Numbered from the stretch's first letter, positions 21,095 to 52,150 are shown. The stretch: 64,000 bases of DNA from Candidatus Babelota bacterium (GCA_013286935.1 JABDES010000001.1:2499-66498), one strand, 5' to 3'. The notes: generated from the letters alone by a model not told the origin. Translations and numbers: made by a program.

Positions 21095-21179
21095 GATTTC
21101 ATGTAAAGATAGAACACAGCAAAATTTTGAATATAAGTTTTGCTGTGTTCCCGTTGTAGTACCGTTGGTATAACAGAGG

Positions 21180-23180: not shown

Positions 23181-23198
23181 ATTAGTGGAAAGGTGGAG

Positions 23199-25301: not shown

Positions 25302-25323
25302 TGATTGACGAAAGAAGTGGACA

Positions 25324-27342: not shown

Positions 27343-27372
27343 TGTGGCTATGATGAAAGGGGTTGTAAAAAA

Positions 27373-29625: not shown

Positions 29626-29640
29626 TGATATGGTGCTCTT

Positions 29641-31578: not shown

Positions 31579-31583
31579 TTTAG

Positions 31584-33503: not shown

Positions 33504-33517
33504 GCAAAAGGCGGATT

Positions 33518-35467: not shown

Positions 35468-35494
35468 CATAGTTGTGCGTTTTATTGCCAAGGG

Positions 35495-37426
35495 ATGGAA
35501 ATGACAGCTGCTCTTAGACCAATATTAGGTGTTACCAGTTCATTGTTGTTATTGCACATCATCTATGCATCAGATGTTTATGATTTTCGTCTTATAGAAC
35601 CGCTGGCGCATCTTCTGGGGGCCAACCAAGACGTCAGCCAAACAACCGATGTTATTGATATTCTTGTTGACCCTGTTGTGTTCTATGAAACGAATACAGA
35701 CTCTCTATTGATTGAGTCTGAAGTGGATTACCTTGTCAGAAAGGTAGGTATCGACAGTGTATTATTGTCAAAGCGGCTTGATATGGCTATCGATCTTCAC
35801 AATACGGTTATTGCTTGTCAAGAAAAAATGCACAATGATGCTTGCGCTGCGCAGCATTCAATTACGAGCTTGTGCCAATCGTGCGTAGAACAACTCGATG
35901 TGCGAATGCCTAGTCATTTAGAGGTGCTTGATACGAACGGTGGTGTGTACGATATTAACGATGCCATATTAGGTATAGAATCTGGACTAGCCGCCTTGGA
36001 GTGTATGCTCGATAAAGCAGTTACTATATTTGTCCAACATAGCGTACAAGATACCAAAAAGCGTCTTGATCAAGCTGACAACGTTATTACTAGATTGCAA
36101 GAACAGCTGTGTGATCAGAGCCAAGATTTTGCACAAGAATGCAGTTCGCTCAAGGATGAGATAAACCATCAAGCAGAGCTTGCTGCTCAACATATTCAAA
36201 CCAATAAAAGTAATGCATATAAACAGATAGACGATGCTCTAAGGGCAGTTGAGGATGATAGAGGTGCAGCGATAACAGATGAGACTGCCTTAAAACATGC
36301 CCGTGCAATAGCTACTGTTAATAGTCACAATCAATCGGCGATTGTTGTACTCGAACAGGCGATTCACGAATCTGAAAAGGTGGTACAAAAAAAGGCGAAC
36401 GCATTATTACAACATTGTTCTGATGCTCAGAAAAAAATGCTGCAGTTTGACACTTTTTATAATGCTGAGCGTGATGCTCATGCTTTATTTCACGAGCAAG
36501 TCGAATCTTGTATGAGTGAATTTATTTGTCAGATACCGCTATTCTGTCAGGGGTGGAGTAAGTCATGTGATACATCACAGGAGCATCTTCAAGCGGAAAG
36601 TGAGCACATAATAAAAAGATGGTGTGATACATTGTCAAAAATCCCGTGGAAACAATGTGACTGCCGTATGGTGGCAGAGTGGGTAGAAAAATCGGCTGCA
36701 ATATTTGATAATTTTTTGTCTGGCATGGCATCAAATTTAAAGATTCATACGGTAGAATCAAAAAATGAGCTTAATCGGCAGCTAGGTCCGATGTTAGTCC
36801 TCTTGTCCGAGGTTATTCGTACTGGTTATGCACAGTTAGGCATTGATTTGACTGAACGTCAGGAGCAGCTTGGTGCTAATACTCAGCAACTTGCAGATTC
36901 GATAGCCAATGATACTGCTGCTTGGGCAGATTCATTTTCGGAAAATGTTGTATCGAATCACAATGCATTTGTTATGGCCTTAGAAGACTCTATGTCTGAT
37001 ATAAAACAAACGATTCAGGATACCTTTTTGTCGTTGCAATCTTTAGTGAGCTGTACATTAAAAGCATGTTCGCAGGAATTATCAGGCACGCAATCGGCGC
37101 AAGATGCCTCGGCGCAGATGGCAATTCAAAAGCAATTATGTCAGATCAGCGTGTTTGGTAACGTGTTGTGCGAGAAAATTTTCAATTTGCAAAACAATAT
37201 ACTATTTGCCTTCAACGAAAATCTAAAGTTGGCCTATCGAAATGAAGCGGCAATAGTAAATCAACTTATAGCATCCACCGACCAAATAAATCTTCTTATA
37301 GCTGCGATGGTTAGTGCGGTACAGAGCGATTTAGGTGGGGTGTCTGGCTTTATTGAGCAGGCAATAAAAAATTCAGAAAAAACAACAACAATTCTCGATG
37401 TTATTGTTATTTTAAGTATGTTGTAA
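35495..37426 (+). CDS. Exported Cys-rich helical protein, subfamily B, member 4
   Basis: Signal-like ILGVTSSLLLLHIIYA. C-terminal module VLCEKIFNLQNNILFAF...LIAAMVSAVQSDLGGVSGFI and hydrophobic end ILDVIVILSML. Confidence 0.8.
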   Translation: MEMTAALRPILGVTSSLLLLHIIYASDVYDFRLIEPLAHLLGANQDVSQTTDVIDILVDPVVFYETNTDSLLIESEVDYLVRKVGIDSVLLSKRLDMAIDLHNTVIACQEKMHNDACAAQHSITSLCQSCVEQLDVRMPSHLEVLDTNGGVYDINDAILGIESGLAALECMLDKAVTIFVQHSVQDTKKRLDQADNVITRLQEQLCDQSQDFAQECSSLKDEINHQAELAAQHIQTNKSNAYKQIDDALRAVEDDRGAAITDETALKHARAIATVNSHNQSAIVVLEQAIHESEKVVQKKANALLQHCSDAQKKMLQFDTFYNAERDAHALFHEQVESCMSEFICQIPLFCQGWSKSCDTSQEHLQAESEHIIKRWCDTLSKIPWKQCDCRMVAEWVEKSAAIFDNFLSGMASNLKIHTVESKNELNRQLGPMLVLLSEVIRTGYAQLGIDLTERQEQLGANTQQLADSIANDTAAWADSFSENVVSNHNAFVMALEDSMSDIKQTIQDTFLSLQSLVSCTLKACSQELSGTQSAQDASAQMAIQKQLCQISVFGNVLCEKIFNLQNNILFAFNENLKLAYRNEAAIVNQLIASTDQINLLIAAMVSAVQSDLGGVSGFIEQAIKNSEKTTTILDVIVILSML

Positions 37427-38566: not shown

Positions 38567-39496
38567 CTATTTGCGATAAAGAAAAATCTTTCCGGATGCA
38601 TCTGTGCTGTAATTGGTATTCTTTTTACAAAAATTAAAGAGTTTAGCAATAAAAATACCTCTTAGGGTAATGGGTATGATCTTACCAATAGCAAGCGGCG
38701 GTAGTTTTTTAGGATTCTTAATAACGCTGCCGGAACTATTGCAATCTTTTTTGAGCAGATTTTTAGATGTTGTCTTGCGCATGGCTGCTTTAAGCTTATT
38801 CCAGGGTATCCAGGCGATTATATGAGCGTCTACAACATGCTCATGATGCGCTATGGCCTTCATAAGATAGTCCCATTTTACTAAGGCAATGGCATCCTTT
38901 TCTAAAAAACAGGATTTGTTTGCATGTTTGTTTTTATGTGTGTCGGTAAGTTCGGCAAATTTTTCTCCATATTTTTTTACAATATCTTCAGAAAATCTTG
39001 TTAGGTAGGCTACGTAATTACATCCACCCCAAAATGTGCCTGCTGCTTCCTGAGCGACGATCTGTTCGGTATTGTTATTATTTTGATGAATGTAATCAGC
39101 AAATTGTTTTTTGTTCATTCCAAAAATAAATTCAGAATTTAATTCCTCATATCCTTCTCGTGCAGCAGTTTGGATTGGAGTTTCACCATAATTAGCTTTA
39201 CCACCAAAATCATCCCATTGGCCCCTGTCTTTGCCTCGAGATTCGCGTGAAAGCATAACGTACTCTTCGCCATTGATTGTTATTACAGGCAACACAGATG
39301 CGGCAGCATGTTTAAAAGAGTTTAGGTTGCAATCTGATTGACGTTGTTTCTCGTATAGGAAATCAGAAATTTGGGTTCGTTTTGAGCATGGATTGTACTG
39401 TTGTGCTTTGATCTGATGTGACCAACTGGCAGATGAATAGCATATGCTGCCTGCTAATACTAAGTGACCGTAAAGAAATAAGTACCACTCGTACAA
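38567..39496 (-). CDS. Nudix-hydrolase-domain protein with hydrophobic N-terminus
   Basis: Nudix box GGKANYGETPIQTAAREGYEELN fits G-x5-E-x7-RE-x2-EE. N-terminus LFLYGHLVLAGSICYSSA is signal-like. The predicted start is TTG and therefore uncertain. Confidence 0.65.
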   Translation of the reverse strand: MYEWYLFLYGHLVLAGSICYSSASWSHQIKAQQYNPCSKRTQISDFLYEKQRQSDCNLNSFKHAAASVLPVITINGEEYVMLSRESRGKDRGQWDDFGGKANYGETPIQTAAREGYEELNSEFIFGMNKKQFADYIHQNNNNTEQIVAQEAAGTFWGGCNYVAYLTRFSEDIVKKYGEKFAELTDTHKNKHANKSCFLEKDAIALVKWDYLMKAIAHHEHVVDAHIIAWIPWNKLKAAMRKTTSKNLLKKDCNSSGSVIKNPKKLPPLAIGKIIPITLRGIFIAKLFNFCKKNTNYSTDASGKIFLYRK

Positions 39497-39827: not shown

Positions 39828-41927
39828 TTAATAAGTAACAAGTTCCTTAACTTCTTTTAGGCGCGAAGACAGCAGATTGTTGATGTTGTTTTTAATTTTA
39901 AACCGTTGATCATTGGTTGTGTAAACGCTTCGTGCCAACTCGACGAACTCTTGATCGAATGTTTTTTTCTGTTCCTTGTAACGAATGTTATCTTCAATCT
40001 CCCACAACGTTTCATTTACCATGCGTAGTGCAATAGTAAGCTCATCAAGCTCTTTTGATGGCGTTACTATCTTTTGATAGGCGGTTTGCAAGGCGCTTCT
40101 TTCGTTTTTGAGATGATGTAATTTAGCATCATCCCTTATTTTAGATAGTTTAATATCCAAAATGGTCATTTTATCAATCAGCTCTCCCAGTGATACTTCT
40201 GCAACTGCAATGGTATTATTTTGTTGGTTTAAGTTTATCAGCGCGCTTAATTCGTTGTGTAAATAGCCGGTAACATCATCCCACACACCATTACGGCATT
40301 GCCTGAATAACGTCATTGAGGGATACCAAGGCGAATCTGTACGATGTTGCATCCACCGCCAATGTGCATTTTTTGGCAATAGTACCCATGTTAGCTTATC
40401 AAGCGCACCAGCGATGTGTGCGATGCTGTTATCAGCGCTCATAACAAGGTCTAGGTTATTTACAAGGCCGGAGATTTCAACTAGAGAATCTGCATTGATC
40501 CCCATGCCATTTAAGGTATTGATTTGTGGCAATGTTAGTTCGAGCTTTGACAGTTGATCAATGTCATGTTCTGAAGGGGTTTGCAATAAGTAAACCGTTA
40601 CATGATCTTTGGGCAGAGCCGAAAGAATGAGTGGGAGTGGTATTGTGTTTTCTGAAAAACCGTTTTCTTGTTTGTAATCGTACCATGAGATGCCTACTTT
40701 CAAGCGCACATCTGTTTTTAGTTTATGTTTCCACATGCGATTTATCGATGGCGGTATAGTAATGTATGGTGTTGAGTTTGGTATGGATTCTAAGGTTGTG
40801 TTGCATACATAAGGTAAGCTTGAAAGTGGAATTTGAATATCTGATTTAGGCAATTCATGGCAAGATTGAACTGCTGGAATGAATTCGTCAATAGATGGAT
40901 TTGTCTCCAGAAGCGTTGCAAGCTGTTCATTGCATTCTACGATTAACGATGAGGCGCCACGATTTTTAAGTAACTGCGCGTACCGTATGAATTGAACCAT
41001 ATCGCAGTCGGTTTCTGCTCCAGCGCGAATCGTTACCGTTTTTCCAACCAAATCATCGTTATTCCAATAGGAAGATGAAATATGTGGTTGATCTGTGTTT
41101 CCGGATAGCCTCCATTCTCTGTGCGCAAATCCTTTTTTGAACTCTCCAAGAGCCAAATAGGCTTCTGCTACGCTGCAATGAGCTGATCTGTGTTCTGGCC
41201 ATTGCTCGAGAGTTGAGTGAAAATGCGGGAGCGCTTCCTTGATTTTTCCAAGATAGGTATAGATATGAGCAATAGAAAGATGAGCTTCTGGGTGATTTGG
41301 ATTAATGCGTAACACCCGTCTGAAAAGATCTAATGCGTTTTGAAAATCCCCAGTACGCGCATTGATGCATCCGGCTTCAAACATGAGTGTCGTATCGCTT
41401 GGCTGGAACTCTATTGCGCGATTATATGCTTTTACAGCTTCTGGCAGTAGGTTAGCAACCGTGTACAACCGAGAAAGATTTGCATGTGCTTGTGCATGAG
41501 TTGGATCTATGGTAAGCGCGCGCTTGAGAGCTGCGATACTTTTGGCTATGTCTCCCTGTTCTTGCCATATTGATGCTAAAAAAAGATGCGGCTGTGCTTT
41601 TGATGGATCTAGCTCTGCTGATTTTTCAAGTGCGGCTGCAGCCGTTTTACTGTCTTTATGCATTAAAAAAATAAGCCCAATATTAAAATATGCTTCAGCG
41701 CAGTCCGGTTTTTTCATAATAACTTGTTGAAAACCGATGAGCGCTTCTTTATATTGTTTGTTTGCCAAAAATTGAAGGCTTTTTTTAAATTCTTCGTCGA
41801 CAGAGACTAGCTCTTGCAGGGTTTGCACAGCAGGCATTGACTGGATAAGATCCGCTTTTATGTAACCTGAAAAAATTAAGCCGGATGCCAAAAGAAGGGG
41901 GATAGTAAAATAGTTTTTTGCTTTCAT
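39828..41927 (-). CDS. TPR-repeat protein with degenerate GT9-like glycosyltransferase domain and extra C-terminal helical domain
   Basis: Signal-like FTIPLLLASGLIFSGYIKA. Multiple TPR units (AEAYFNIGLIF, AQAHANLSRLY, PEAHLSIAHIY). GT region VQFIRYAQLLKNRGA, SIAHIAGAL, HWRWM...SPWYPSMTLFRQ, but the GLGD motif is replaced by AETDCD. A ~130-aa extra C-terminus is present (GELIDKMTILDIKL...LWEIEDNIR...LARSVYTTNDQRFKIKN). Confidence 0.75.
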   Translation of the reverse strand: MKAKNYFTIPLLLASGLIFSGYIKADLIQSMPAVQTLQELVSVDEEFKKSLQFLANKQYKEALIGFQQVIMKKPDCAEAYFNIGLIFLMHKDSKTAAAALEKSAELDPSKAQPHLFLASIWQEQGDIAKSIAALKRALTIDPTHAQAHANLSRLYTVANLLPEAVKAYNRAIEFQPSDTTLMFEAGCINARTGDFQNALDLFRRVLRINPNHPEAHLSIAHIYTYLGKIKEALPHFHSTLEQWPEHRSAHCSVAEAYLALGEFKKGFAHREWRLSGNTDQPHISSSYWNNDDLVGKTVTIRAGAETDCDMVQFIRYAQLLKNRGASSLIVECNEQLATLLETNPSIDEFIPAVQSCHELPKSDIQIPLSSLPYVCNTTLESIPNSTPYITIPPSINRMWKHKLKTDVRLKVGISWYDYKQENGFSENTIPLPLILSALPKDHVTVYLLQTPSEHDIDQLSKLELTLPQINTLNGMGINADSLVEISGLVNNLDLVMSADNSIAHIAGALDKLTWVLLPKNAHWRWMQHRTDSPWYPSMTLFRQCRNGVWDDVTGYLHNELSALINLNQQNNTIAVAEVSLGELIDKMTILDIKLSKIRDDAKLHHLKNERSALQTAYQKIVTPSKELDELTIALRMVNETLWEIEDNIRYKEQKKTFDQEFVELARSVYTTNDQRFKIKNNINNLLSSRLKEVKELVTY

Positions 41928-41987
41928 ATACTCTCTTTTTTAATTAAAGTTGCCAAGCACGTAAAATAAGTTAGAACTCCTCATTAT

Positions 41988-43379
41988 TTATTGTGTAATA
42001 AATGCTTCAGACAGTATGTTTAATTCCCAGCGAACGCGTTGGATAACGCTATGCCAATCAAATGGCATAGGCTGCTTGAACAAAGTCATTGTTGGATACC
42101 ACTCAGAACTTGTTTTTCCACTTACCCATCGCCAGTCAGAACTATAAGGTAACAAAAGCCAAACACGACAACCAAGGCCTCCTGCAAGATGACCTACGGC
42201 GGAGTCTACGCATATGATTAAATCTAAATTATTAATAACAGCGGCGGTGTCTGAAAAGTTTCCATGAATTTGATCGAATGTGTCATCAAAGGTCGTTACG
42301 CGAAAATTGTTTGATATATGTTGGATGTCGTTGGCACCATCTTTTTGTTGCAGGCTGTACAACGATACATTGGGCAAGGTGCTCAAGCTTGCCAACAGCT
42401 CACACGGTATTCCTCTTCGTGCCATTGGCAAACGCGAAGAATCATTATGGATGTCTACTTGCCAGCAAATTCCGACCTTACATTTTTTATCTGATGCAAA
42501 AAATGCTTTCCATTTTTCTTGTAATATTTTGTTTGCAGTAATGTATGGAACATCGCGCTGTAGCGTTTCCTGGGAACAATGTAGTATTGATGGCAAGCTC
42601 ATATACGTTACTCGCGCGTCATGAGGTGGAATGTGAGAACCAGCTTCTATTACACAGTCATAGTAATTACAATTTTTTAATAGCTCATATAACGGTTTTT
42701 GTACGAGCGCAATAATGCGAGCTCCACGTTGTTTTAACTCTTTAGCGCATGGAAAAAAATTGATAGTGTCGCCCAATCCGCCTTCTGGAATCAGTAAAAT
42801 TGTTTTTCCGGCTATAGTATTTTCAGCCAATAGTGCGCGCAGTTCCGGTGCATTTTTTCCTTGTTTGATTAAATTCCATTCATGTGCTTTGAACCCTTCT
42901 TGAAAAGACCCCTTAGTGATCAAAGCAAACGAAAGCCCCAGTCGTGCTGCTTCATACTCCGGGTTTACAAGAATTATTTTTCTGAAAATTTCAATTGCCT
43001 TATCAATATATCCCGCAGTCTTTAGGGCGTATCCTATGTTATACAATGCCGAAGTTGAATATTGTGGAAAATGCTTTATGAGTGAATAGTATGCATGCAG
43101 TGCCTGTGGGACATCGCCGCGACAAAGGTGAATGTGTCCAAGCTTGAAAAGCAACTCTATATTAATAGGGTCAAGAGATTGCGCCTGATTTAAATAGAGT
43201 AAGGCTGTGTCAAAATCCTCAGTTTCGCAGGCTTTTGCGCCCTGCGCCAAAAGCGTTGCTACGGTTGGTTGTTCATTTTGATGACCGCACAGCGCAATGT
43301 GTGCGTTGATGATACATATAAGGCATATGACTTTTGCCCATAATGCTTCTTTTTTTATTACTATTGTTTTTGTAATCAT
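41988..43379 (-). CDS. TPR + GT9-like (heptosyltransferase-fold) glycosyltransferase paralog
   Basis: TPR units followed by EGGLGDTINFFPCAKELKQRGA, VGICWQ, VDSAVGHLAGGLG and DWRWV...EWYPTMTLFKQ. The ATG directly abuts the stop of the upstream paralog. Confidence 0.8.
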   Translation of the reverse strand: MITKTIVIKKEALWAKVICLICIINAHIALCGHQNEQPTVATLLAQGAKACETEDFDTALLYLNQAQSLDPINIELLFKLGHIHLCRGDVPQALHAYYSLIKHFPQYSTSALYNIGYALKTAGYIDKAIEIFRKIILVNPEYEAARLGLSFALITKGSFQEGFKAHEWNLIKQGKNAPELRALLAENTIAGKTILLIPEGGLGDTINFFPCAKELKQRGARIIALVQKPLYELLKNCNYYDCVIEAGSHIPPHDARVTYMSLPSILHCSQETLQRDVPYITANKILQEKWKAFFASDKKCKVGICWQVDIHNDSSRLPMARRGIPCELLASLSTLPNVSLYSLQQKDGANDIQHISNNFRVTTFDDTFDQIHGNFSDTAAVINNLDLIICVDSAVGHLAGGLGCRVWLLLPYSSDWRWVSGKTSSEWYPTMTLFKQPMPFDWHSVIQRVRWELNILSEAFITQ

Positions 43380-45020
43380 TTACTCACCGTTATTTAAAGA
43401 CGAACCTGTTTTTTGTTCGACAAATCGTACGAGTTCCTGTTTGATCGTTTCAAATACCTGATCCCAATTGCCGGCGGTTTCCTGCCTGAAAAGACGCATA
43501 TTTGGATACCACGGTGTTTTTGCGGTATACAACATCCAGCGCCAATCTGCAGGTTCTGGTAAAAATACCCAGGTTTCTATTCCAAGACCCGCTGCAAGGT
43601 GAGCCATAGAGGTGTCGACTGTAATGAAAAGATCCATATTTTTTAGTACTGCAGCGGTATCCATAAAGCGTCCATTCGTGCTGTCAAAGCTATCATCAAA
43701 GATATGGATTTCCGGTGGAAGGGCTGCTGCCTGATCAACACCAGTCTCTTTTTGTAGGGAATATAATTTGATATGCGGTACTTGGCAAAGCTTTGCAAAT
43801 TTCACTGCAGGGATTGACTTTGCAGCCACTACAGAGCGAAGTGCAGCGGTTCGATAATTTGCATTTCCTTGCCAGCAAATACCGATCTTAACTCGCTTTT
43901 CGTGCGATAATTTCTGTTTCCACTCATGTTCAAGTGATGCGGATGCATACAGATAAGGTATGACATTTGGGGTAGTTTCAACGGTAGTTTTTAAGATATA
44001 AGGCAGTGTCATAAGTGGTGCTTGGTAATCATATTTGACTGGCTGCTGATTCATAGCAATTACTTTATCTATGTATGGACACAACGCAATAATGGACAAA
44101 AGTGGATTTTGAACACTTACTACAACGCGAGCTCCTTTGTTTTTGAGTATGCGTGCATAACGGATAAATTGAAATGTGTCACCCAGCCCCTGTTCTGCAT
44201 ATAAATAAACGATTTTTCCGTTTAAATCGGCATCTTTGTCAAGCATTGGTTCGCTCAACGTCCTTTGTGGGGGGTACCCGGGACGTTTCCATCTATATTC
44301 ATATTCTGGCCACCCACGATCCCAGTCCCCTATGGTTAGGTATGCCAAGCCTCTGCTAAAACGAGCTTCAGCGTATTCAGGGTCCTGCTCGAGCGATGCG
44401 TTATAAAAAACCATAGCTTCATCTACTCGATTTATTTTTTTTAAGGTGTATGCAGTGTTGTAAAGGATTGTTTTATTGGTGGGAAATTTATCCAACAATT
44501 TGTAATACCAAAATAAAGATTCGTCATTTTCATTTGCCATATTTAAGGTATTTGCAAGATCGAACATGAGATGAGCATTGTCGGGCCGTATTCGAAGTGC
44601 TTCTTTTGTATACAAAATTGCCTGCGCATGATTTTGTGATTCTCGTAAGGAGTTAGCAGTTGCTATGTACATATCCGCCAGAGAGTCTTGCTCGTTTGGC
44701 ATTGGCTCAACTGTTTGACTGTTAGCGATATTGAATGCGGCATCTTTCGGGTCTAATTTAGCAAGTAATAGGCTGGCAGCAGACGTCAAAGATGGATCTG
44801 ATGGGCGCAAACGAGCAGCCTCTTTAAGGTATATTAAAGCAGTTTTATATTCTTTTTTTGTTTGAAGTTCTTCAGATAGGGTTAAATATGAATCTACCAA
44901 AATCTCTTGTTCGTTTTTTGGTAGTAATTCGCTATCAGTTTGTTCGCATAGTGATATTGATGATGTAATGATATGTAGTATGCAAAGGGCATGGTGTAAA
45001 ATTAACTTTATGGTCTTCAT
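43380..45020 (-). CDS. TPR + GT9-like glycosyltransferase paralog
   Basis: Motifs EQGLGDTFQFIRYARILKNKGA, IGICWQGN, VDTSMAHLAAGLG and DWRWM...PWYPNMRLFRQ. N-terminal hydrophobic segment plus TPR units. Confidence 0.8.
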   Translation of the reverse strand: MKTIKLILHHALCILHIITSSISLCEQTDSELLPKNEQEILVDSYLTLSEELQTKKEYKTALIYLKEAARLRPSDPSLTSAASLLLAKLDPKDAAFNIANSQTVEPMPNEQDSLADMYIATANSLRESQNHAQAILYTKEALRIRPDNAHLMFDLANTLNMANENDESLFWYYKLLDKFPTNKTILYNTAYTLKKINRVDEAMVFYNASLEQDPEYAEARFSRGLAYLTIGDWDRGWPEYEYRWKRPGYPPQRTLSEPMLDKDADLNGKIVYLYAEQGLGDTFQFIRYARILKNKGARVVVSVQNPLLSIIALCPYIDKVIAMNQQPVKYDYQAPLMTLPYILKTTVETTPNVIPYLYASASLEHEWKQKLSHEKRVKIGICWQGNANYRTAALRSVVAAKSIPAVKFAKLCQVPHIKLYSLQKETGVDQAAALPPEIHIFDDSFDSTNGRFMDTAAVLKNMDLFITVDTSMAHLAAGLGIETWVFLPEPADWRWMLYTAKTPWYPNMRLFRQETAGNWDQVFETIKQELVRFVEQKTGSSLNNGE

Positions 45021-45044
45021 AGTTACTGCTCCTAATATTGTAAT

Positions 45045-46865
45045 CTAACGTTGTGTACCAAATCGATGTTGATAGCGCGCTAACTCCTCTTGGACTATAT
45101 GCCTTGTTTTATCCGTAAAAGAAATGGTTGATGTGCTTGTGGATTGATTTTCAGAGGTATCGTCACTGGTTGGGATTGTAGGCCTTGCTTGGGTTACCGG
45201 TTCTGTTGATTGGGCAGGACTAGGGTCATTTTTTGATTTATGCTCACTATTTTTATCTTTACTATCCGCTTTATGGCAGACAATCTGTGCGATGATGTTA
45301 GTGATATTTTTTTCAAGCGCGGCAGGGTCGATAATATTTTTTTTTAATTTTGTTGCATTGTCATTTACAAGTGACTCTACCGTATTTTTAATGCGTTGTA
45401 TTACCGGCCCCCATTCACCGGGGGTTTCTTGCTGAAAAATGCGTATTTTTGGATACCATGGAGAATCTTGTCTGTCTACAATCCACCGCCAATCTGCTGG
45501 TGTTGGTAAAATAAGGAATGCATTTACATCAAGTCCTCCTGCAAGATGAATTATGGAGGTATCAACAGAAACAACTAAATCCAAATTTTTCATTACGGCT
45601 GCTGTATCCATAAAGCGGCCATGCGTTTTATCAAAATCACCAGAAAATTGATGTATTGCTATTGAGGGGTCAAGTTCATTTAACTGGTTTAGGCCATCCA
45701 CTTGTTGCAAGCTATAGACCGATACGTTTGGTATTTTTGCAAGGCTTGCAAAAAGATTAAGAGGAACAGACTTTGCAGCTACTGCCCTGCGCAACGCTTG
45801 GGTTGGGTAGTTGCCATTGCCATGCCAGCAGATACCGATTTTGAAATTTTTATCCGAGGATAATCGTTGCTTCCAATAATCGATTAGTTTTGCATCCGCA
45901 TGCAGATAGGGGATATTATTTGGCACGGTTTCAATGGTGGTTCCAAGGATGAGTGGTAGGCTCATGAGTGGAACTTGATAATCGAATTGTGGTAGCGGTT
46001 GATTGCGCACTACGACCTGATCAATATACTTACACAGTCGTAATATATCTGCGGCGGCCGCTTGGGTTTCAAAAATGACGTGAGCACCTTTTTCTTTCAG
46101 GATTTGCGCATATCTAATAAATTCAAACGTATCTCCTAGCCCTTGCTCTGAATAGATTAATATTTTTTTTCCTGCAATATCTGCGCCGTCCCAGAGTGGC
46201 TGAGAAAATCGTTTTGGTGATTCTCCATATGCCTGCCATCGCCATTCATATTCTGACCAACCTTCTTTAAAGTTACCAATTGTCAAAAGAGTGGCTGCCA
46301 AGTTAAAATGCCCAAGTCCATAGTTAGGTGTTATTTCTAATAATTTTCTAAATACTTTAATTGCATCTTCATAGCGGCCCATTTTTTTTAGAGTAAAGCC
46401 AAAGTTGTGTAGTGCGGATACCATGTCCGGCTTTAGCTCAAGAACACGCATGTATAGCGTTATTGACTCCGGATCGCGATCCAGCATGTTAAGCGTATTG
46501 CCAAGTTCCATTAATGCGGTCAAATGGGTTGGGTGTAGCTGTAAGGCCTGTGCATAATGTTTTAATGCAGCATCAAAAGAATCTTTTTCTCGTAAAATGT
46601 TTCCAGCATTGATATGTATGTCAGCCAACCGAGCGCTATCCATGCCAGATGATACAGCAATTGTTTTTTCATAGTAGGCAAGAGCTTTTTCCTTATCTGA
46701 TTTTTCAGCGTAAAATTTGGCAAGCTCAAGATATTCTTCTGCGCTAGGATTGATCGATGGCGTAGATGATTCAATCTCTGACTGACCATATGCATGCGTT
46801 ATGCAAACAAGAAATAGACAAAGGACATAAGACCGGAGAAATGCCAGAGATTTGTTATGCTTCAT
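45045..46865 (-). CDS. TPR + GT9-like glycosyltransferase paralog with S/T/P-rich C-terminal extension
   Basis: Motifs EQGLGDTFEFIRYAQILKEKGA, IGICWHGN, VDTSIIHLAGGL and DWRWI...PWYPKIRIFQQ. Tail DPSPAQSTEPVTQARPTIPTSDDTSENQSTSTSTIS. Confidence 0.8.
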   Translation of the reverse strand: MKHNKSLAFLRSYVLCLFLVCITHAYGQSEIESSTPSINPSAEEYLELAKFYAEKSDKEKALAYYEKTIAVSSGMDSARLADIHINAGNILREKDSFDAALKHYAQALQLHPTHLTALMELGNTLNMLDRDPESITLYMRVLELKPDMVSALHNFGFTLKKMGRYEDAIKVFRKLLEITPNYGLGHFNLAATLLTIGNFKEGWSEYEWRWQAYGESPKRFSQPLWDGADIAGKKILIYSEQGLGDTFEFIRYAQILKEKGAHVIFETQAAAADILRLCKYIDQVVVRNQPLPQFDYQVPLMSLPLILGTTIETVPNNIPYLHADAKLIDYWKQRLSSDKNFKIGICWHGNGNYPTQALRRAVAAKSVPLNLFASLAKIPNVSVYSLQQVDGLNQLNELDPSIAIHQFSGDFDKTHGRFMDTAAVMKNLDLVVSVDTSIIHLAGGLDVNAFLILPTPADWRWIVDRQDSPWYPKIRIFQQETPGEWGPVIQRIKNTVESLVNDNATKLKKNIIDPAALEKNITNIIAQIVCHKADSKDKNSEHKSKNDPSPAQSTEPVTQARPTIPTSDDTSENQSTSTSTISFTDKTRHIVQEELARYQHRFGTQR

Positions 46866-46929: not shown

Positions 46930-48063
46930 TTATGTTGATGTAAATTCTGTTTTTTTGGAAGAGGTCCATTGTAATAAAAGATCAATTAATGGTTGCAATC
47001 CTGATTTTGAGCGAGCATCAATGACTACATGTGGCTGATAACGTTCAATCATTTTTTCTATAAGTGGCGTTAGTTCAATTTTGTCACATTTATTGAATGC
47101 GTATATGATCGGTTTTTCTGTCAGTGAAAGATCATCGAGCAACTCTTGGACCGTCCTAATATGTTGTTGCCACGAATGGCTTGAAATATCTACGACATGA
47201 ATTAATAAGGAGGCGTAAGATAGTTCTGCCAACGTTGATTTAAATGCGTCTATCAATCGAGTAGGTAACTCTTGAATAAATCCAACAGTATCAGACAATA
47301 GTGCTACTTTTTCAGAACCTATAAACAGCTCGCGCGTTGTTGTATCAAGCGTTGCAAATAGTTTGTCTTGTGCGAGTACATTGCTTTTGGTCAAAGTATT
47401 TAAAATGGTAGATTTGCCTGAATTTGTATAACCGATCAATGAGATGAGCGGTAGTGAGCTTGAAAGACGCTGTTTGCGTTGTGTTTGGCGAGTTGTTTCA
47501 ATTTTTTTAAGTTGACTTTTAAGTTTATTAATGAGCAGCTCTATGTGCCGTCGTTCGCGTTCTTTGAGCGTCTCGCCCGGTCCACCGCGCGCACCTGCAA
47601 CACCTAACTGCTGAGAGAGCGTTACGCCTTTTCCTGCCAACCGTGTTTTTTCGTGAGAAAGGAGGGCAATGGCGACTTGTGTTTTCCCTTCAGCTGAATG
47701 AGCAGCTTTTTCAAAAATCTCCAAAATAAGCCGTGTGCGATCGATGATTGTGCATTCAAGATAGTCTGAAGCATTGCGCTCTTGCTGCGGGGAAAGTGAT
47801 TCAGAGATGATGACACGCTCAATAGCATGTTCTTGGCAGAATTTTTTTACATCTTCTAGCTTGCCAGTAGTTAGTAGGTATGCATTGTCGATTGTGCGTA
47901 GTTTTAAAAATAAGACATGGTCTGCGCAGGATCCGTGTGTTTTTACAAGATTGAGAAATTCGTCAAAATAAGATTGAATATCCTCATGTTTTTTTGTTGC
48001 GATATCAAGACCCAAAATGAGCGTTTTTGGTTCTTGTAGGTTGTTTGTTGCTATCCTGGTCAT
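46930..48063 (-). CDS. hflX: GTPase HflX
   Basis: HflX N-terminal domain followed by a G domain: GYTNSGKSTILN (G1), LSDTVGFI (G3), NKCD (G4). I prefer the ATG at 48063 over the TTG at 48087. Confidence 0.9.
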   Translation of the reverse strand: MTRIATNNLQEPKTLILGLDIATKKHEDIQSYFDEFLNLVKTHGSCADHVLFLKLRTIDNAYLLTTGKLEDVKKFCQEHAIERVIISESLSPQQERNASDYLECTIIDRTRLILEIFEKAAHSAEGKTQVAIALLSHEKTRLAGKGVTLSQQLGVAGARGGPGETLKERERRHIELLINKLKSQLKKIETTRQTQRKQRLSSSLPLISLIGYTNSGKSTILNTLTKSNVLAQDKLFATLDTTTRELFIGSEKVALLSDTVGFIQELPTRLIDAFKSTLAELSYASLLIHVVDISSHSWQQHIRTVQELLDDLSLTEKPIIYAFNKCDKIELTPLIEKMIERYQPHVVIDARSKSGLQPLIDLLLQWTSSKKTEFTST

Positions 48064-48143
48064 ACGTATGCGCTTTCTGGCAGTCAATTCGATTAATTAA
48101 ATGTACACATCTTATAATACAAGATTTCTAAAAAACATATATC

Positions 48144-49418
48144 TCATCCACCAGGCGTGCAAAATGTTTCAATGATGGCCTTAATCTCCTCCTCTGCGGG
48201 GTTGTGTTTCGTTCCCAAGGAATCGAGAATATGTAATGCGTATTGAGAATCGTTATTCTCCATGACCGCCAAATACCAGTGGCCGTCCTTTATTAAAGGA
48301 TCAGGACTTCCCCTACGAATAAGAAATGAATGTCTATCTCCGATGGGTAGATTTCTGGCAATATTTTTATAATTGTTAGGACGAGCATCATTAGCCCAGT
48401 GCTTGTCCGATGCGCGCCTAGAATAACTTAGCACCTTGTAACTGTCATATACAAAGCTTGTATTACTTGTTGATGGTAATTGATTTGCCATATCTAACTG
48501 ATATGTGTGAATAAAATGATAATGTAAAAATGCGTCCTGTTGGCATTTGTCAGACATCTCTAAGAGATTATGTTTTATTGTTCTAGCGATCTGCGCAACA
48601 TCTTCTTGTGTAATCTGCTCAATACCAAGTGCATCATTAGGGGATTGAAGAGATGGAAATCTATCTGTGCATATTTCGATTGCCCATCTGTTTATGTTGG
48701 CTTGGGTGACAGCTTTTCGAAACTCATCGACCGATGGAATTTTGTCATTTTCAAACAGATGGACTATTTTATTTGCCCACGGATAGATACTATTATTTGC
48801 ATTAAGTAGAGTCGTCATACGTAATAGGAGTTTTGGGTGATACGCTTTGTTTAGGTTGATTATTTTTCCACAAAAAAACCACGCAATGGGATTTGGAATG
48901 TACTTCAAGGCAGCCATGTTTTTTAAGTAGTCATTAACGTATGCACTAAATTGATCGCGATTAATCGTGCTCAGATAGCCTTCAGGGGATCCATTGTTTT
49001 TATTAAGGTGTTCATTAAATCTCATACAATTAAACATTGCCTGATGATGGCATTCTGTTCCATTTGGTTGACGTAGCGTTTTTACGTTAACAATCTTTAC
49101 ACGGTCATTATATGGGCAGTCGATGCCTTGCAGCTCGGGCTGTGGTGAAGGTCTCGTTTTATTAGCGCTGGTTGTGGTTTGTGGGTTGTGTAATAGCCTG
49201 ACAATCGCAGCTTGATGGTACAAGGCTATGGTAGAGATTACTAGCAGCGTTGCTGCAACGATGATCTTTTTCCTATGAGTATAGCAAAACGCTTTGACTG
49301 AATCGGTCAGTGAATATTCCGGCTCACTATCGCATTCCTGTGGCAATGCACCGTTAGACTCGAAGGCAATCAAAAAGAGTACGGTAAAAAGAGGGATTAA
49401 TATTGAGCGTACATTCAT
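48144..49418 (-). CDS. Membrane-anchored/exported putative papain-fold Cys peptidase (paralog P1)
   Basis: Leader MNVRSILIPLFTVLFLIAFES and a second hydrophobic segment. Conserved LRQPNGTECHHQAMFNC and, near the C-terminus, GHWYLAVMENNDSQYALHILDSLGT. Confidence 0.75.
   Translation of the reverse strand: MNVRSILIPLFTVLFLIAFESNGALPQECDSEPEYSLTDSVKAFCYTHRKKIIVAATLLVISTIALYHQAAIVRLLHNPQTTTSANKTRPSPQPELQGIDCPYNDRVKIVNVKTLRQPNGTECHHQAMFNCMRFNEHLNKNNGSPEGYLSTINRDQFSAYVNDYLKNMAALKYIPNPIAWFFCGKIINLNKAYHPKLLLRMTTLLNANNSIYPWANKIVHLFENDKIPSVDEFRKAVTQANINRWAIEICTDRFPSLQSPNDALGIEQITQEDVAQIARTIKHNLLEMSDKCQQDAFLHYHFIHTYQLDMANQLPSTSNTSFVYDSYKVLSYSRRASDKHWANDARPNNYKNIARNLPIGDRHSFLIRRGSPDPLIKDGHWYLAVMENNDSQYALHILDSLGTKHNPAEEEIKAIIETFCTPGG
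48909..49380. repeat. Near-identical duplicated block, copy 1 (5' third of P1)
   Basis: Aligns base-for-base with 50180-50657 apart from scattered substitutions and one 6-bp indel. The remaining parts of P1 and P2 are much more diverged. Confidence 0.85.
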
Positions 49419-50695
49419 AGTCCATCTCCTGCGGGCTTAGCGTCGGGGGTGCAAAATGTTTCAATGATTGTTTTAATTCCCTCTTCTGTGGCCGTGTGTT
49501 CCGTGCCAAGAGAGTCAAGAATGTGTAGATTGTATTGATTGTTATCATTGTGTATAACGATTAGGTACCAGTGATTATTATCCCCAGAATGAGAGATTAG
49601 CCAATGTTTGCTTCCAGCCGGCAAAGTTCTAAGAGTGTTTTGATGATTTGGTAGTGCACACGGATCGCCTGATTGATCTTGTCTACTAAAATAATTTAGT
49701 ATGTTGGTACAAAGACCTTTCCGAGAATACGCAAAACTCGTATCATTTTTTGAGGGCAATTGCTTTGCTATATCTAGCTGGTATGCGTGAATTCGATCAT
49801 AATGACCAAATGCGTCTGATTGGCACTCGCTAGTTATCGTTAAGAGACGATTTTTGATAGTGCTCGCAATCTCTGCAATATCTTTTTTTGTAATCCGTTC
49901 AATATCAGCGGGTTGGAGCGATGGAGAAATATACGCGCATGTTTCGATTATCCATCTGTTTACGTTTGCTTTGGTTACAGCCTCTTGAAACTCTTTGACC
50001 GATGGGATTTTGCCATGCTCAAACAAAGAGGCTATTTCTTTGCCTGCCCATGGATAGATAACATTCTTTTCTTCGGTAAATTGGCTCATATGGTCTTGAA
50101 GCTTTCTATCATGTGTTTGGTTTTGTTTGATTATTTCGCGACCAAAAAACCAAGCAATGCTATCAGCAATGCATTTTAAGGCAGCCATGTTTTTTAAGTA
50201 GTCATTAACGTATGCATTAAATTGATCGCGATTAATCGTGCTCAGATAGCCTTCAGGGGATCCATTGTTTTTATTAAGGTGTTCATTAAATTTCATACAA
50301 TTAAACATTGCCTGATGATGGCATTCTGTTCCATTTGGTTGACGTAGCGTTTTTACGTTAAAAATCTTTACACGGTCATTATAGGGGCAGTCGATGGCTT
50401 GCAGCTCGGGCTGTGGCGAAGGCCTCGTTTTATTAGCGCTGGTTGTGGTTTGTGGGTTGTGTAATAGCCTGGCAATCGCAGCTTTATGGTACAAGGCTAT
50501 AGTAATAGTAGAGGTTACTAGCAGCGTTGTTGCAATGATGATCTTTTTTCTATGTGTATAGCAAAACGTTTTGACTGAATCAGTCAGTGAATATTCCGGT
50601 TCACTATCACATTCCTGCGGTAATGCACCGTCAGACTCGAAGGCAATCAAAAAGAGTGCGGTCAGACAAAAGACTGTTGCTTTATTAAAGTTCAT
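49415..50695 (-). CDS. Membrane-anchored/exported putative papain-fold Cys peptidase (paralog P2)
   Basis: Conserved LRQPNGTECHHQAMFNC and NHWYLIVIHNDNNQYNLHILDSLGT. 4-nt overlap with P1 and 11-nt overlap with P3. Confidence 0.75.
   Translation of the reverse strand: MNFNKATVFCLTALFLIAFESDGALPQECDSEPEYSLTDSVKTFCYTHRKKIIIATTLLVTSTITIALYHKAAIARLLHNPQTTTSANKTRPSPQPELQAIDCPYNDRVKIFNVKTLRQPNGTECHHQAMFNCMKFNEHLNKNNGSPEGYLSTINRDQFNAYVNDYLKNMAALKCIADSIAWFFGREIIKQNQTHDRKLQDHMSQFTEEKNVIYPWAGKEIASLFEHGKIPSVKEFQEAVTKANVNRWIIETCAYISPSLQPADIERITKKDIAEIASTIKNRLLTITSECQSDAFGHYDRIHAYQLDIAKQLPSKNDTSFAYSRKGLCTNILNYFSRQDQSGDPCALPNHQNTLRTLPAGSKHWLISHSGDNNHWYLIVIHNDNNQYNLHILDSLGTEHTATEEGIKTIIETFCTPDAKPAGDGL
50180..50657. 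repeat. Near-identical duplicated block, copy 2 (5' third of P2)
   Basis: See 48909-49380. The offset between copies is about 1271 bp. Confidence 0.85.
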
Positions 50696-51887
50696 TTAAT
50701 ACCTGCACAATAGTCTTAATCTCAGGCTCTGCTGAGCTGTGTCCGGTACTCAAAGAATCAAGCATATAGAGCTTATATCGATCATTACTTTTTTGTATGG
50801 CCCCAAAAAACCAGTGCGCGTATGATTCTTTGAAACAGAATAACGAATGTATGTCGTCTCTAGATAGTGTATTTCTCACATGTTGAGTATGGTCTTCATA
50901 CTGATTGAAAACATTACTTATATAGACTTGCTTTGCCTTACCATCATAGTACAGTAAACTTATATCATCTTTTGATGTTGATGAATTACACACATCTGGT
51001 GGAGCTTTAGAGCAGACGTACGTTAAATGATGAATGATCGTACCGGGTATGTTTGGCAACAGGTGGCCATCGTACATTTTTATTGTTTCAGCAATCTTGT
51101 AAATATCCTTTGTCGTAATATCTTTAATAGGGAAAGATCCAAATGATGCAGAGAACGGTTTGATTTTTTCTGTAAGCCATGTTTGCATAGCAGATTCGTC
51201 TATGGCTTTTTGCCATTCTTGTACAGAGGGTATCTTGTTGTTGGAAAACAGAGGGACTATTGCGCTCGCCCATGGGTATCTAAGGCTATAATTTTTTTTA
51301 CTTATTGGGTTAGAATCACCGTTCATTGTTGCGAAGTAGAACTTGTCGAGCTCCTCTGCATTCTGGTCTGTTGCGTGTTTTGAAATCAAAAAACGCACGA
51401 TTGTGTTAGGAATTGTTTTTAAGGTACTTACCTCATCTCTGAAGCTATCAACGAACTCTTTAAATGAACTTTCTGTTATGCTACTGATGTAGCCATCATG
51501 GCATCCGTTGTGTTCTTTTAGATATTCATTAAATTTTATAAAATTAAATACTGTTCGCCAATGGCAGTCGGTCGCATTTGGCTGAAGCAGTGTGCGCACA
51601 TTGATAATGTCTACCTTGCCATCCCTGATTATTTGGTCGCCGCTTATCGGTAGTAGGCTGCCAAATAGTCGTCCAATCGCATCTTTATGGTATAAACCCG
51701 TTATGCATCCCACCAACAATGTGCAAGCGGCAAGTATCTTCCTATGGTTGTAGAAAAACGCTTGAACTGAATTTTTAATGGAGGCTTTAGGCTCACTATC
51801 GCATTCCTGTGATAGTGCAGGGTTAAATCCGACCGTTACCAGAGAGAGTACGGTAAAAAAAGGGATTAATATTGAGCGTACATTCAT
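50685..51887 (-). CDS. Membrane-anchored/exported putative papain-fold Cys peptidase (divergent paralog P3)
   Basis: The internal ATG at 51887 gives MNVRSILIPFFTVLSLV, with the same AGGAGATGGACT leader as P1. Conserved LLQPNATDCHWRTVFN and AHWFFGAIQKSNDRYKLYMLDSLST. Confidence 0.7.
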   Translation of the reverse strand: MNVRSILIPFFTVLSLVTVGFNPALSQECDSEPKASIKNSVQAFFYNHRKILAACTLLVGCITGLYHKDAIGRLFGSLLPISGDQIIRDGKVDIINVRTLLQPNATDCHWRTVFNFIKFNEYLKEHNGCHDGYISSITESSFKEFVDSFRDEVSTLKTIPNTIVRFLISKHATDQNAEELDKFYFATMNGDSNPISKKNYSLRYPWASAIVPLFSNNKIPSVQEWQKAIDESAMQTWLTEKIKPFSASFGSFPIKDITTKDIYKIAETIKMYDGHLLPNIPGTIIHHLTYVCSKAPPDVCNSSTSKDDISLLYYDGKAKQVYISNVFNQYEDHTQHVRNTLSRDDIHSLFCFKESYAHWFFGAIQKSNDRYKLYMLDSLSTGHSSAEPEIKTIVQVLNEL

Positions 51888-52150
51888 AGTCCATCTCCTG
51901 TGTGTGCTTTGCACTAGATGCGCGTGCCATATTGAGCATTTCGTAGTATTATAGAGTATAGCAATTATAATTATATTATGCAAATTGGCAAATTGGAGGG
52001 CTCTGGACTACTCAGGCCAGGCTTGGTTGCATGTGTGGCAGGTTGATATGAATGGGAAATGGGCCCTGTGGCTAGATTGATGGGGCTTGTTGGCTGGATT
52101 ATTGAAGGTTGTCAGAACGGTACAGATAGATTGAGGGGCTGTACAAAACG

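Follow-up and report, generated by a model that had tools for sequence, protein, structure and literature searches.

The stretch of DNA analysed here (the window) is 64,000 nucleotides (64 kb) long and comes from Candidatus Babelota bacterium (GCA_013286935.1, JABDES010000001.1:2499-66498). Our subject is a cluster of four consecutive minus-strand genes at 39828-46865, named G4, G3, G2 and G1 from upstream to downstream, each of which codes for a protein with a signal-peptide-like N-terminus, tetratricopeptide repeats (TPR) and a C-terminal glycosyltransferase (GT) domain of the GT-B type. An earlier description made from the DNA without database searches (the sequence-only reading) had drawn attention to them, and the open reading frames (ORFs) that we mapped match its coordinates exactly, including the one pair of genes joined stop to start: the G3 stop codon directly abuts the G2 start. 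The remaining intergenic gaps in the cluster measure 24 bp and 60 bp. Upstream, on the same strand, 64 bp separate the end of hflX from G4, and hflX is possibly co-transcribed with the cluster. A promoter and terminator scan of the cluster gave fewer matches than shuffled sequence and no minus-strand terminator-like site. The exact G3 sequence is also present in public assemblies. The features of the four genes are as follows.

45045-46865, minus strand: G4, 606 aa; signal-peptide-like N-terminus, TPR, GT9-like GT-B domain and a 95-aa tail
46785-46865, minus strand: signal-peptide-like segment of G4, aa 1-27, MKHNKSLAFLRSYVLCLFLVCITHAYG followed by Q, cleavage site guessed; hydropathy 2.50, n-region +3, acidic flank
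45333-46250, minus strand: GT9-like domain of G4, equivalent to that of G3 by alignment
43380-45020, minus strand: G3, 546 aa; signal-peptide-like N-terminus, TPR and GT9-like GT-B domain
44946-45020, minus strand: signal-peptide-like segment of G3, aa 1-25; hydropathy 2.03, n-region +2
43380-44303, minus strand: GT9-like GT-B catalytic domain of G3, aa 240-546; from alignment, Pfam, hhalign and Foldseek
41988-43379, minus strand: G2, 463 aa; signal-peptide-like N-terminus, short TPR and GT9-like GT-B domain
43287-43379, minus strand: signal-peptide-like segment of G2, aa 1-31; hydropathy 2.65, n-region +3/-1
41997-42854, minus strand: GT9-like domain of G2, equivalent to that of G3 by alignment
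39828-41927, minus strand: G1, 699 aa; signal-peptide-like N-terminus, long TPR, divergent GT9-like domain and DUF6165
41853-41927, minus strand: signal-peptide-like segment of G1, aa 1-25, ending ...SGYIKA followed by D; hydropathy 2.11, n-region +2
40209-41126, minus strand: GT9-like domain of G1, equivalent to that of G3 by alignment
39831-40211, minus strand: DUF6165 module of G1, aa 573-699; Pfam PF19662

Paralogy and domain architecture

G2, G3 and G4 are 28-30% identical to G1, with 59 alignment columns invariant across all four proteins, and G3 and G4 share 41% identity over their full length and 52% in the C-terminal domain; judged from the alignment, the similarity among the four paralogues is far beyond chance. 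Pfam TPR models (TPR_1, TPR_2 and related models) gave strong matches in all of G1-G4. An AlphaFold model of G3 built from 54 sequences, with a predicted local distance difference test (pLDDT) score of 92.6 and a predicted template-modelling (pTM) score of 0.83, consisted of an isolated helix (residues 2-25), a disordered linker (26-30), about 12 TPR helices (35-245) and two Rossmann lobes. Together with the Pfam matches and the composition of the N-termini, the model bears out the shared architecture proposed by the sequence-only reading, namely a hydrophobic N-terminus, TPR units and a GT-B-like domain. The motifs that it had listed for the C-terminal domain (GLGDT..F.RYA, IGICW[QH]G, VD[TS]xxxHLA[AG]GL and DWRW...PWYP) hold strictly in G3 and G4, but deviate slightly in G2 (FFPCA, VGICWQV, EWYP) and clearly in G1 (AETDCDM, VGISWYD, ADNSIAHIAGAL, HWRW).

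A separate feature, found only in G4, is its C-terminal tail (45045-45332, aa 511-606), which comprises about 95 aa of low complexity, rich in Ser, Thr, Pro and Lys (...DPSPAQSTEPVTQARPTIPTSDDTSENQSTSTSTISF...). From this composition the tail is probably disordered, and it could plausibly be an O-glycosylation site itself.

The C-terminal domain belongs to a sister clade of GT9

Pfam Glyco_transf_9 (PF01075) scored 21.7 bits in G2 and 18.5 bits in G3, both under the gathering cut-off of 22, and did not match G1 or G4; at the level of the family, 20 out of 22 diverse members matched the model at E<=1, the best at 6.9e-9. Glyco_transf_41 (GT41) had no match in G1-G4. A phmmer search of PDB sequences with the C-terminal domain of G3 alone gave no match, and a search with the family profile reached only a marginal match to the GT9 structure 3TOV (E 1.3). 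Since the PDB sequence searches were nearly blind, assigning the fold required a structure model. When the full-length G3 model was submitted to Foldseek, TPR proteins (SPINDLY, OGT and designed TPRs) came out on top, with TM (template-modelling) scores of 0.2-0.3 and root-mean-square deviations of 14-25 A; this match was driven by the TPR part, so the result was set aside as not usable for the class of the catalytic domain. A second model, which comprised G1 residues 268-699 without the TPR (pLDDT 81.8), retrieved 3TOV as the top match (E 9e-9), then WaaF (1PSW), WaaC (2H1H) and 2GT1, and then TibC (E 1e-5). The matches to 3tov, 1psw and 2h1h ranged from E 9e-9 to 4e-6 with target-normalised TM scores of 0.5-0.56, and the list also included the plant NDH-PSI chains 9grx_1 and 7wff_a.

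With hhalign, the family was aligned to Escherichia coli WaaC, WaaF and WaaU with 94% probability over the N-terminal GD loop, where the invariant Asp of the family (D281 of G3, in EQGLGD) falls on WaaC D13. At the site of WaaC D261 and H266, the family consensus VITVDTxxAHLAGALG stands against the heptosyltransferase pattern VSVDTGLxHxAAAL. Taken together, Foldseek, Pfam at the family level and hhalign confirm the GT9-like fold that the sequence-only reading had proposed, with the refinement that the clade is a distant sister of GT9 and not GT9 proper; that G1-G4 are members of this family and share the fold is hardly in doubt.

Identity of G1-G4 as lipopolysaccharide (LPS) heptosyltransferases or as bacterial autotransporter heptosyltransferases was considered and rejected. 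Two homologues carry the Joint Genome Institute (JGI) label 'ADP-heptose:LPS heptosyltransferase'. Genes for ADP-heptose supply (gmhA, hldE, gmhB) were not found within the 64-kb window. It does contain glmS (12984-14846, plus strand; GATase and SIS domains), and from the presence of this gene the organism should be able at least to begin hexosamine and UDP-GlcNAc synthesis.

FlmG is a divergent member of the same family

In Caulobacter, FlmG is a cytoplasmic flagellin O-glycosyltransferase of 596 residues, in which the TPR half binds flagellin and preference for pseudaminic or legionaminic acid is determined by the GT-B half (PMC7591256; bioRxiv 10.1101/2022.03.25.485807). The literature describes it as confined to Caulobacterales, and none of the papers found states the fold family of its GT domain. 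We translated the flmG cloning primers given in a paper supplement, which yielded the peptides MSRKSAL, FQIPGVR, WSGQDL and AKEELGV. A metagenome scan with the exact primer gave no match; a scan with a codon-degenerate version of one primer did, and contigs L097 and L148 were found to contain an ORF of exactly 596 aa that holds all four peptides. This FlmG orthologue adjoins flagellin genes and a probable acetyltransferase gene, which on reading its sequence is likely FlmH-like.

The orthologue matched the family hidden Markov model (HMM) at E 6e-38 over the whole domain and the family profile in hhalign with 99.9% probability (E 4e-32, 301 columns), and BLASTP aligned it to G3 at E 1e-16 over 445 residues spanning the TPR, the linker and the GT domain, with an identity of about 22% to the window proteins. 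By these sequence comparisons FlmG is a divergent member of the TPR-GT family, and what the sequence-only reading had offered as an analogy turns out to be homology. Membership of FlmG lends experimental backing to a division of labour in which the TPR part recognises the protein that the GT domain is to glycosylate, and on this ground the reading of G1-G4 as protein glycosyltransferases is a reasonable one. FlmG differs at the presumed donor site, where it has FSNATIN and SWTRL in place of the VDTSxAH and DWRW of the window proteins. Because of this difference, the donor of the window proteins is probably not a nonulosonic acid and probably not that of FlmG; heptose is not implied either. The orthologue starts with MSRKSALETSAS... 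and has no signal peptide. Flagellar genes were not found in the 64-kb window.

The active site is conserved in G2-G4 and altered in G1

We compared 25 positions that are near-invariant across the whole TPR-GT family, in a C-terminal domain of about 300 aa (EQGxGD, W, R, Q, D..VDTSxAH, DWRW, WY, Q and W). All 25 residues are present in G3, 24 in G4 (the exception being W484F) and 23 in G2 (Q277G and R287P), and with their orthologues included, G2-G4 retain 23-25 of the 25. By this comparison the GT9-type active site is intact in G2-G4, and we consider it likely that these three proteins are catalytically active. G1 has AETDCD in place of the EQGLGD loop and N in place of R395, and retains the equivalents of D281, D469, H474, WRW and WY. 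The same pattern was observed in G1-type proteins generally, in which the EQGLG loop is consistently swapped (AETDC, EDIQ or EDLQ), as is R395, with both Asp residues, WRW and WY retained; the His is present in G1 and in one orthologue and is Gln in the other. With its altered glycine loop and fused DUF6165 helical module, G1 is proposed to be a specialised or regulatory subunit. Among the 54 Dependentiae sequences just two Cys residues are near-invariant (C314 and C382, G3 numbering), and there is no four-Cys iron site.

The N-termini suggest export

The N-termini of G1-G4 have an n-region with a net charge of +2 to +3, then 18-24 uncharged residues, then an acidic stretch. Under the positive-inside rule, a positive n-region with an acidic flank points to an N-in/C-out topology, for a cleaved and an uncleaved segment alike. 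The sequence-only reading had held that the hydrophobic N-termini would have to be anchors keeping the enzymes cytoplasmic, which this charge distribution contradicts: the catalytic part would most likely lie outside the cytoplasm with the N-terminus either anchored or cleaved. The call of export was made by hydropathy, charge and conservation heuristics, and among window proteins the N-terminus measure rejected GyrB, GlmS, superoxide dismutase (SOD), HflX, Ffh and S9, and accepted S41 peptidase and YidC.

The measure was passed by 63 of 100 full-length Dependentiae homologues. All eight orthologues in loci L004 and L005 have a similar N-terminus by inspection, unscored, and most of the six TPR-GT N-termini of locus L156 look signal-like by eye. 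Among the matches listed in the genome scan, the Dependentiae-type loci passed in four cases out of four, and members from other phyla in none of 39. From the best 142 of 37,905 cluster representatives, 15 passed; one of these is G3 itself, one (P0168, 2025 aa) passed through an internal hydrophobic stretch, and the others look Dependentiae. A strict lipobox was present in only two of the 63 passing homologues, so that most of them would be soluble exported proteins; lipoprotein status, suggested for G2 and G3 by a Cys ending the h-region, was thus rejected as a trait of the family. Stand-alone DUF6165 proteins have a hydrophobic N-terminus in Dependentiae-type genomes and none in Paracoccus or Gemmataceae, and a GT34-like gene beside another Dependentiae TPR-GT cluster (L157) also codes for a signal-peptide-like N-terminus. 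From these patterns, it would seem that the Dependentiae lineage has redirected the whole module to a place outside the cytoplasm, and G1-G4 are quite probably exported.

The core gene set of TM6, the Dependentiae, includes a type II secretion system (T2SS) in which gspD is present twice (PMC4776705), and in Chromulinavorax 44% of coding sequences have signal peptides, ankyrin-repeat candidate effectors included (PMC6561590). The window itself codes for three ankyrin-repeat proteins (1334-2176, 3365-4093 and 4175-4900), and the pair at 3365-4900, tandem paralogues, resemble the Chromulinavorax candidate effectors in having signal-peptide-like N-termini.

The operon is conserved downstream of hflX

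In loci L004 and L005 (assemblies GCA_964575265.1 and GCA_048222815.1), four TPR-GT genes come after hflX, arranged as in the window. The one-to-one orthologues are 50% (G4), 54-59% (G3), 44-46% (G2) and 35-36% (G1) identical, HflX is 62-65% identical, and the G1 orthologues have the same DUF6165 fusion. In the more distant Dependentiae locus L002, hflX is followed by two GT genes and a separate DUF6165 gene, and in L156 by six TPR-GT genes, among which lies a single short ORF; clusters of two to seven copies linked to hflX occur in other Dependentiae. Judged by order and identity, the four genes are an ancient, collinear Dependentiae operon (probably of Babeliales) downstream of hflX; the Dependentiae assignment follows from the names of homologues, the ankyrin and signal-peptide content of the window and its synteny with metagenome assemblies of Dependentiae. 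As the paralogues are individually conserved, they are not redundant, and they may serve different acceptors or sugars, or successive steps.

DUF6165 is a recurrent partner of the GT domain

The DUF6165 match in G1 scored 41 bits over aa 577-690. The module has the conserved motifs GELIDK.TIL.IK and LW.IED.IR.KE..FD.EF.ELAR.VY..ND.R, and in a low-confidence model it forms the end of the last helix of the GT domain and two further long helices. With an HMM built from four Dependentiae sequences, we found DUF6165 fused C-terminally to TPR-GT proteins in Gemmataceae, other Planctomycetota, Bradyrhizobium (in a reading frame of 2333 aa) and Rhizomicrobium (fusion loci L010, L012, L014, L015, L027, L048 and L083). 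As a separate adjacent gene (L002, L022, L046 and L089) it occurs in a Gemmataceae metagenome-assembled genome (MAG) and an unclassified MAG, and on a Paracoccus plasmid (L089) the gene for a TPR-less GT domain of 296 aa extends into the beginning of one annotated as 'DUF6165 family protein'. DUF6165 is thereby a recurrent partner of the GT9-like domain across at least five phylum- or class-level lineages, which gives it a first functional context. No relative of the DUF6165 tail was found in the PDB, and literature searches on DUF6165 and on DUF4254 yielded no useful paper.

Size and distribution of the TPR-GT family

An indexed search with the C-terminal domain of G3 returned 999 proteins, the closest 58% identical; several close relatives come from Candidatus Dependentiae or Babeliales and bear the NCBI name 'tetratricopeptide repeat-containing glycosyltransferase family protein'. 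An exhaustive search found at least 37,905 cluster representatives (clusters at 50% identity) at E<=1e-3, with 14,847 at E<=1e-30. The family is thus very large and mostly uncharacterised; FlmG of Caulobacter is the only characterised member identified, and in the literature we found no paper that describes the TPR-GT family as such, nor one on Dependentiae TPR glycosyltransferases. The matches listed in the scan of the genome collection came mostly from Planctomycetota and Cyanobacteria, and together with those of the plasmid search they place the family in Planctomycetota, Cyanobacteria, Alphaproteobacteria, Burkholderiales, Geobacter, Ignavibacteria and Dependentiae. Azospirillum has 12 copies on one replicon, and the Azospirillum and Paracoccus plasmid members sit in sugar-nucleotide, GT or polysaccharide-type clusters.

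Several members have unusual forms or settings. Giant proteins of 2000-3100 aa with three to six consecutive modules, each of TPR and a GT9-like domain, occur among P0121-P0270 (for example P0121, 3114 aa); they have no signal peptide and apparently belong to cyanobacteria and other free-living phyla. Three Dependentiae-like proteins (P0126, P0132 and P0139) combine two or three TPR-GT modules with a signal peptide. On the Arcobacter plasmid CP146529.1 (1-16867; L006), a family member is flanked on one side by genes for a hypothetical protein of more than 8500 aa, SapC and an FkbM methyltransferase, and on the other by a complete type I secretion system (T1SS; ABC, HlyD and TolC), and we take the locus as a candidate system for the glycosylation of a giant protein secreted by the T1SS. 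A distant member (27.6% identity) on the Salipiger abyssi plasmid pPABY5 (6605-9801; L088) follows an FkbM methyltransferase gene within a flagellar cluster, which suggests that FlmG-like flagellin glycosylation reaches beyond Caulobacterales, contrary to the narrow distribution given in the literature.

Neighbouring genes

The cluster lies between the following features.

46930-48087, minus strand: hflX, from Pfam; conserved upstream neighbour, given as context and not as a functional part
38567-39496, minus strand: NUDIX hydrolase, Pfam NUDIX 32.9 bits; hydrophobic N-terminus; 331 bp downstream of G1
17551-37426, plus strand: array of ten exported-looking, Cys-rich, helical paralogues, from composition; convergent with the GT operon

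The NUDIX gene has no counterpart at the equivalent position in L004 or L005, and it is possible, with some uncertainty, that its product is an accessory of the GT operon. An exported-looking nucleoside-diphosphate-X hydrolase beside exported glycosyltransferases is a suggestive pairing.

The array comprises ten tandem paralogues of 353-750 aa, all with signal-peptide-like N-termini and with 16-31 Cys each. They are Leu- and Gln-rich and helical, with weak similarity to Pfam models of the Apolipoprotein type. The sequence-only reading had called the array Ser/Thr-rich and had named its products as candidate substrates of the glycosyltransferases. The first claim did not hold: Ser and Thr make up 12-25% of the array proteins overall and 12-13% of the four members nearest the GT genes, which is the level of the GT proteins themselves (11-13%), and very few Ser/Thr-dense windows were found. 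A Ser/Thr-rich substrate array was therefore rejected on composition. Adjacency is the ground for the second claim. Homologues of the array proteins with 20-31% identity stand convergent beside the GT operon in L004 and L005, so that the adjacency is kept there, and by these identities the array evolves fast; in L002, L156 and L157, however, other neighbours take its place. The caveat attached to the claim agrees with the ORF map: the two gene sets are encoded on opposite strands, and three unrelated genes separate them. Of the 48 window ORFs that we scored, about 30 have the look of exported proteins; chance alone would thus be expected to supply an exported neighbour, and a link between the GT operon and the array is possible but weak.

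Other neighbours are noted here as observations. In two loci of other Dependentiae genomes (regions L156 18949-21368, and L157 864-3098 and 6688-7455), the TPR-GT clusters adjoin large Beta_helix/NosD proteins. The one in L157 has a signal-peptide-like N-terminus, the L156 locus as analysed does not include the N-terminus of its protein, and the L157 cluster also adjoins the GT34-like (eukaryote-type GT-A) gene. Directly upstream of hflX in the window, three tandem paralogues of about 425 aa are encoded on the minus strand (48144-49418, 49415-50695 and 50685-51983), with signal-peptide-like N-termini, the motif 'RQPNGTECHHQAMFNC' and a C-terminal 'GHWYL...LHILDSLG'. In one of them the His region matches Pfam Peptidase_C48 (Ulp1) at 18.7 bits, below the threshold of 20.7, and from these motifs the three may be exported cysteine-protease or deubiquitinase/deSUMOylase-like effectors.

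Interpretation and alternatives

The best explanation overall, to which we assign a probability of roughly 0.45, is that G1-G4 form an operon of exported TPR-GT family members that glycosylate proteins outside the bacterial cytoplasm. Each protein would be made with a Sec-type signal peptide and moved across the inner membrane, as the N-termini suggest, and would then be released, probably by the T2SS, if the literature on the phylum applies here. Outside the bacterial cytoplasm the TPR superhelix would bind a protein acceptor, as has been shown for FlmG, and the GT9-like GT-B domain would move a sugar to it from a nucleotide sugar, the Asp of EQGLGD being the putative counterpart of the WaaC general base D13 and VDTSxAH that of D261/H266, for donor-sugar binding. 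Since there is no periplasmic nucleotide-sugar synthesis and the metabolism of the parasite is minimal, the donor would most likely be a nucleotide sugar of the host cell. The enzymes would act in the host cytosol or at the bacterial surface, on host proteins or on bacterial proteins secreted along with them. Within this scheme a protein acceptor is moderately favoured, and action in or at the host cell with host sugars is tentative, at somewhat short of an even chance. The most specific version, in which a cytoplasmic module of TPR-GT and DUF6165 gained Sec signal peptides and was thereby turned into secreted effectors that, like an imported OGT, pick host proteins through the TPR in the host cytosol and glycosylate them with the nucleotide sugars of the host, is less likely than not.

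Several points weigh against this explanation. G1 is without the glycine-rich loop. The N-terminus measure also passed TrmD and an AAA-like ORF, both probably in error, and signal peptides are less specific in a phylum where 44% of coding sequences have them. No bacterial GT-B enzyme is known to work outside the cytoplasm. Crossing of the outer membrane is taken from the literature on the phylum, and donor and acceptor cannot be derived from sequence. The protein acceptor is deduced from one relative, 22% identical and with a different donor-site motif, and TPR also occur in polysaccharide machinery, such as the Cps3D polymerase among our search matches.

Two other readings keep the enzymes catalytic but change the acceptor. 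In one, they glycosylate the adjacent array paralogues of about 650 aa, either before export or, both sets having signal-peptide-like N-termini, after it in the periplasm or at the surface. This is consistent with the convergent arrangement of the GT operon and a distantly homologous array in the window and two other genomes, with the signal-peptide-like N-termini of both protein sets, and with the setting of relatives: the cluster neighbour in L156 and L157 is likewise a large protein, of the Beta_helix/NosD type, the Arcobacter plasmid member stands between the protein of more than 8500 aa and a type I secretion system, and TibC and Aah are established to modify beta-helical adhesins. Against it, only close relatives (HflX 62-65% identical) show the adjacency, Ser and Thr near the GT genes are at background with almost no dense segments, an exported neighbour is no surprise in this window, and the two gene sets are on opposite strands and separated by unrelated genes; we regard it as improbable. 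The other reading places the proteins in envelope biogenesis, as membrane-associated GT9-like transferases that act on a glycolipid, an LPS-like core or a polysaccharide, with the TPR serving assembly or oligomerisation. LPS heptosyltransferases are indeed the nearest solved structures and supply the JGI label on two homologues, plasmid members in Azospirillum and Paracoccus keep company with sugar-nucleotide or polysaccharide-type genes, the capsule polymerase Cps3D has TPR, and glmS lies within the window. Babeliales, however, are without most LPS biosynthesis genes (PMC4776705), and the window holds no other glycan-assembly genes in its 64 kb. Lipid-linked assembly by GT-B enzymes takes place at the cytoplasmic face, in conflict with the N-in/C-out topology predicted here, and the sole characterised homologue of the same architecture glycosylates a protein, which leaves this reading quite improbable.

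A further alternative denies catalysis altogether and sees exported TPR scaffolds with a non-catalytic GT-like domain and a binding or adaptor role in the periplasm or the host. It has a precedent in the GT9-like NDH subunit of chloroplasts (plant NDH-PSI; 9grx_1 and 7wff_a), which has no known transferase activity, and it would fit the loss of the EQGLGD loop and R395 in G1 and its orthologues as well as an extracytoplasmic site with no obvious donor. G2-G4 and their orthologues, on the other hand, retain essentially every residue invariant in a family that spans many phyla, both Asp and the His among them, as would not be expected of pseudoenzymes, and four separately conserved copies suggest enzymatic specialisation; of the explanations weighed, we consider this one the least probable.

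TPR-guided GT-B protein glycosyltransferases of the FlmG type were already known, and the family had been named by annotation pipelines; the signal-peptide-bearing, apparently exported version, the multi-paralogue operon, the partnership with DUF6165 and the membership of FlmG are new. Dependentiae are widespread obligate parasites of protists whose tools for host manipulation are hardly known beyond counts of ankyrin repeats, and the conserved operon, with its exported and apparently active glycosyltransferases, offers a concrete candidate for an effector system. The glycosyltransferase effectors known so far are all GT-A. If the effector version is correct, this would be the first effector class of the GT-B/TPR type, delivered by Sec and T2SS and encoded in multi-paralogue operons across a whole phylum; if the enzymes act in the host, glycosyltransferase effectors would be extended to a new fold and delivery route, with a natural mimic of OGT-type signalling. 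The results also tie FlmG to tens of thousands of uncharacterised TPR-GT proteins, including the giant proteins with three to six modules, which suggests that cytoplasmic TPR-guided protein glycosylation in bacteria may be far commoner than assumed.

Comparison with known systems

The GT9 heptosyltransferases WaaC, WaaF and WaaQ (2H1H, 1PSW, 3TOV) have the closest solved folds and share with the window proteins the N-terminal xGD loop with its catalytic Asp and the VDTGxxH motif, but the similarity in sequence is marginal (Pfam below cut-off, PDB profile E 1.3). GT9 heptosyltransferases have neither TPR nor signal peptide and act on Kdo2-lipid A at the cytoplasmic face. The bacterial autotransporter heptosyltransferases TibC and Aah (4RAP, 4RB4) also share the GT9-related GT-B fold (Foldseek E 1e-5), and enzymes of this type reportedly (Lu et al. 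2014, cited in PMC7591256) O-glycosylate proteins, namely large secreted adhesins, at Ser residues. TibC, which binds iron and forms a dodecamer in the cytoplasm, has no TPR, whereas the window proteins have TPR and signal-peptide-like N-termini and no four-Cys iron site; no autotransporter gene was found in the 64-kb window.

OGT and SPINDLY (SPY) of family GT41, together with bacterial OGT-like proteins (XCC0866), share the TPR superhelix that feeds a GT-B domain, and were the top Foldseek matches for full-length G3; by sequence, OGT is the best natural TPR match to the window proteins. The catalytic domain of the window proteins, however, is not of the GT41 type and has about 300 aa, roughly half the post-TPR length of OGT and SPY chains. 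OGT and SPY are nucleocytoplasmic eukaryotic enzymes. With the secreted GT effectors Lgt1-3 and SetA of Legionella, NleB of enteropathogenic E. coli (EPEC), SseK of Salmonella and the clostridial toxins, the likeness is one of function, and for the host-directed reading only. Those proteins use host nucleotide sugars to glycosylate host proteins; they have the GT-A fold and no TPR, are delivered by type III or type IV secretion systems (T3SS/T4SS) or by self-translocation, and are unrelated to the window proteins by sequence and by fold.

FlmG of Caulobacter crescentus and Brevundimonas subvibrioides is cytoplasmic, adjoins flagellin genes and uses CMP-pseudaminic or CMP-legionaminic acid, whereas the window proteins have signal-peptide-like N-termini, stand in a window without flagellar genes, keep the GT9-type donor-site motifs that FlmG has replaced, and come as four tandem paralogues of which one is fused to DUF6165. 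What FlmG and the window proteins share extends over the whole architecture: the N-terminal TPR, a linker of the form GW.(E)YE.R...W.G..L.GK, a GT-B domain of about 300 aa, the EQGLGD loop and the ...PWYP...F... motif.

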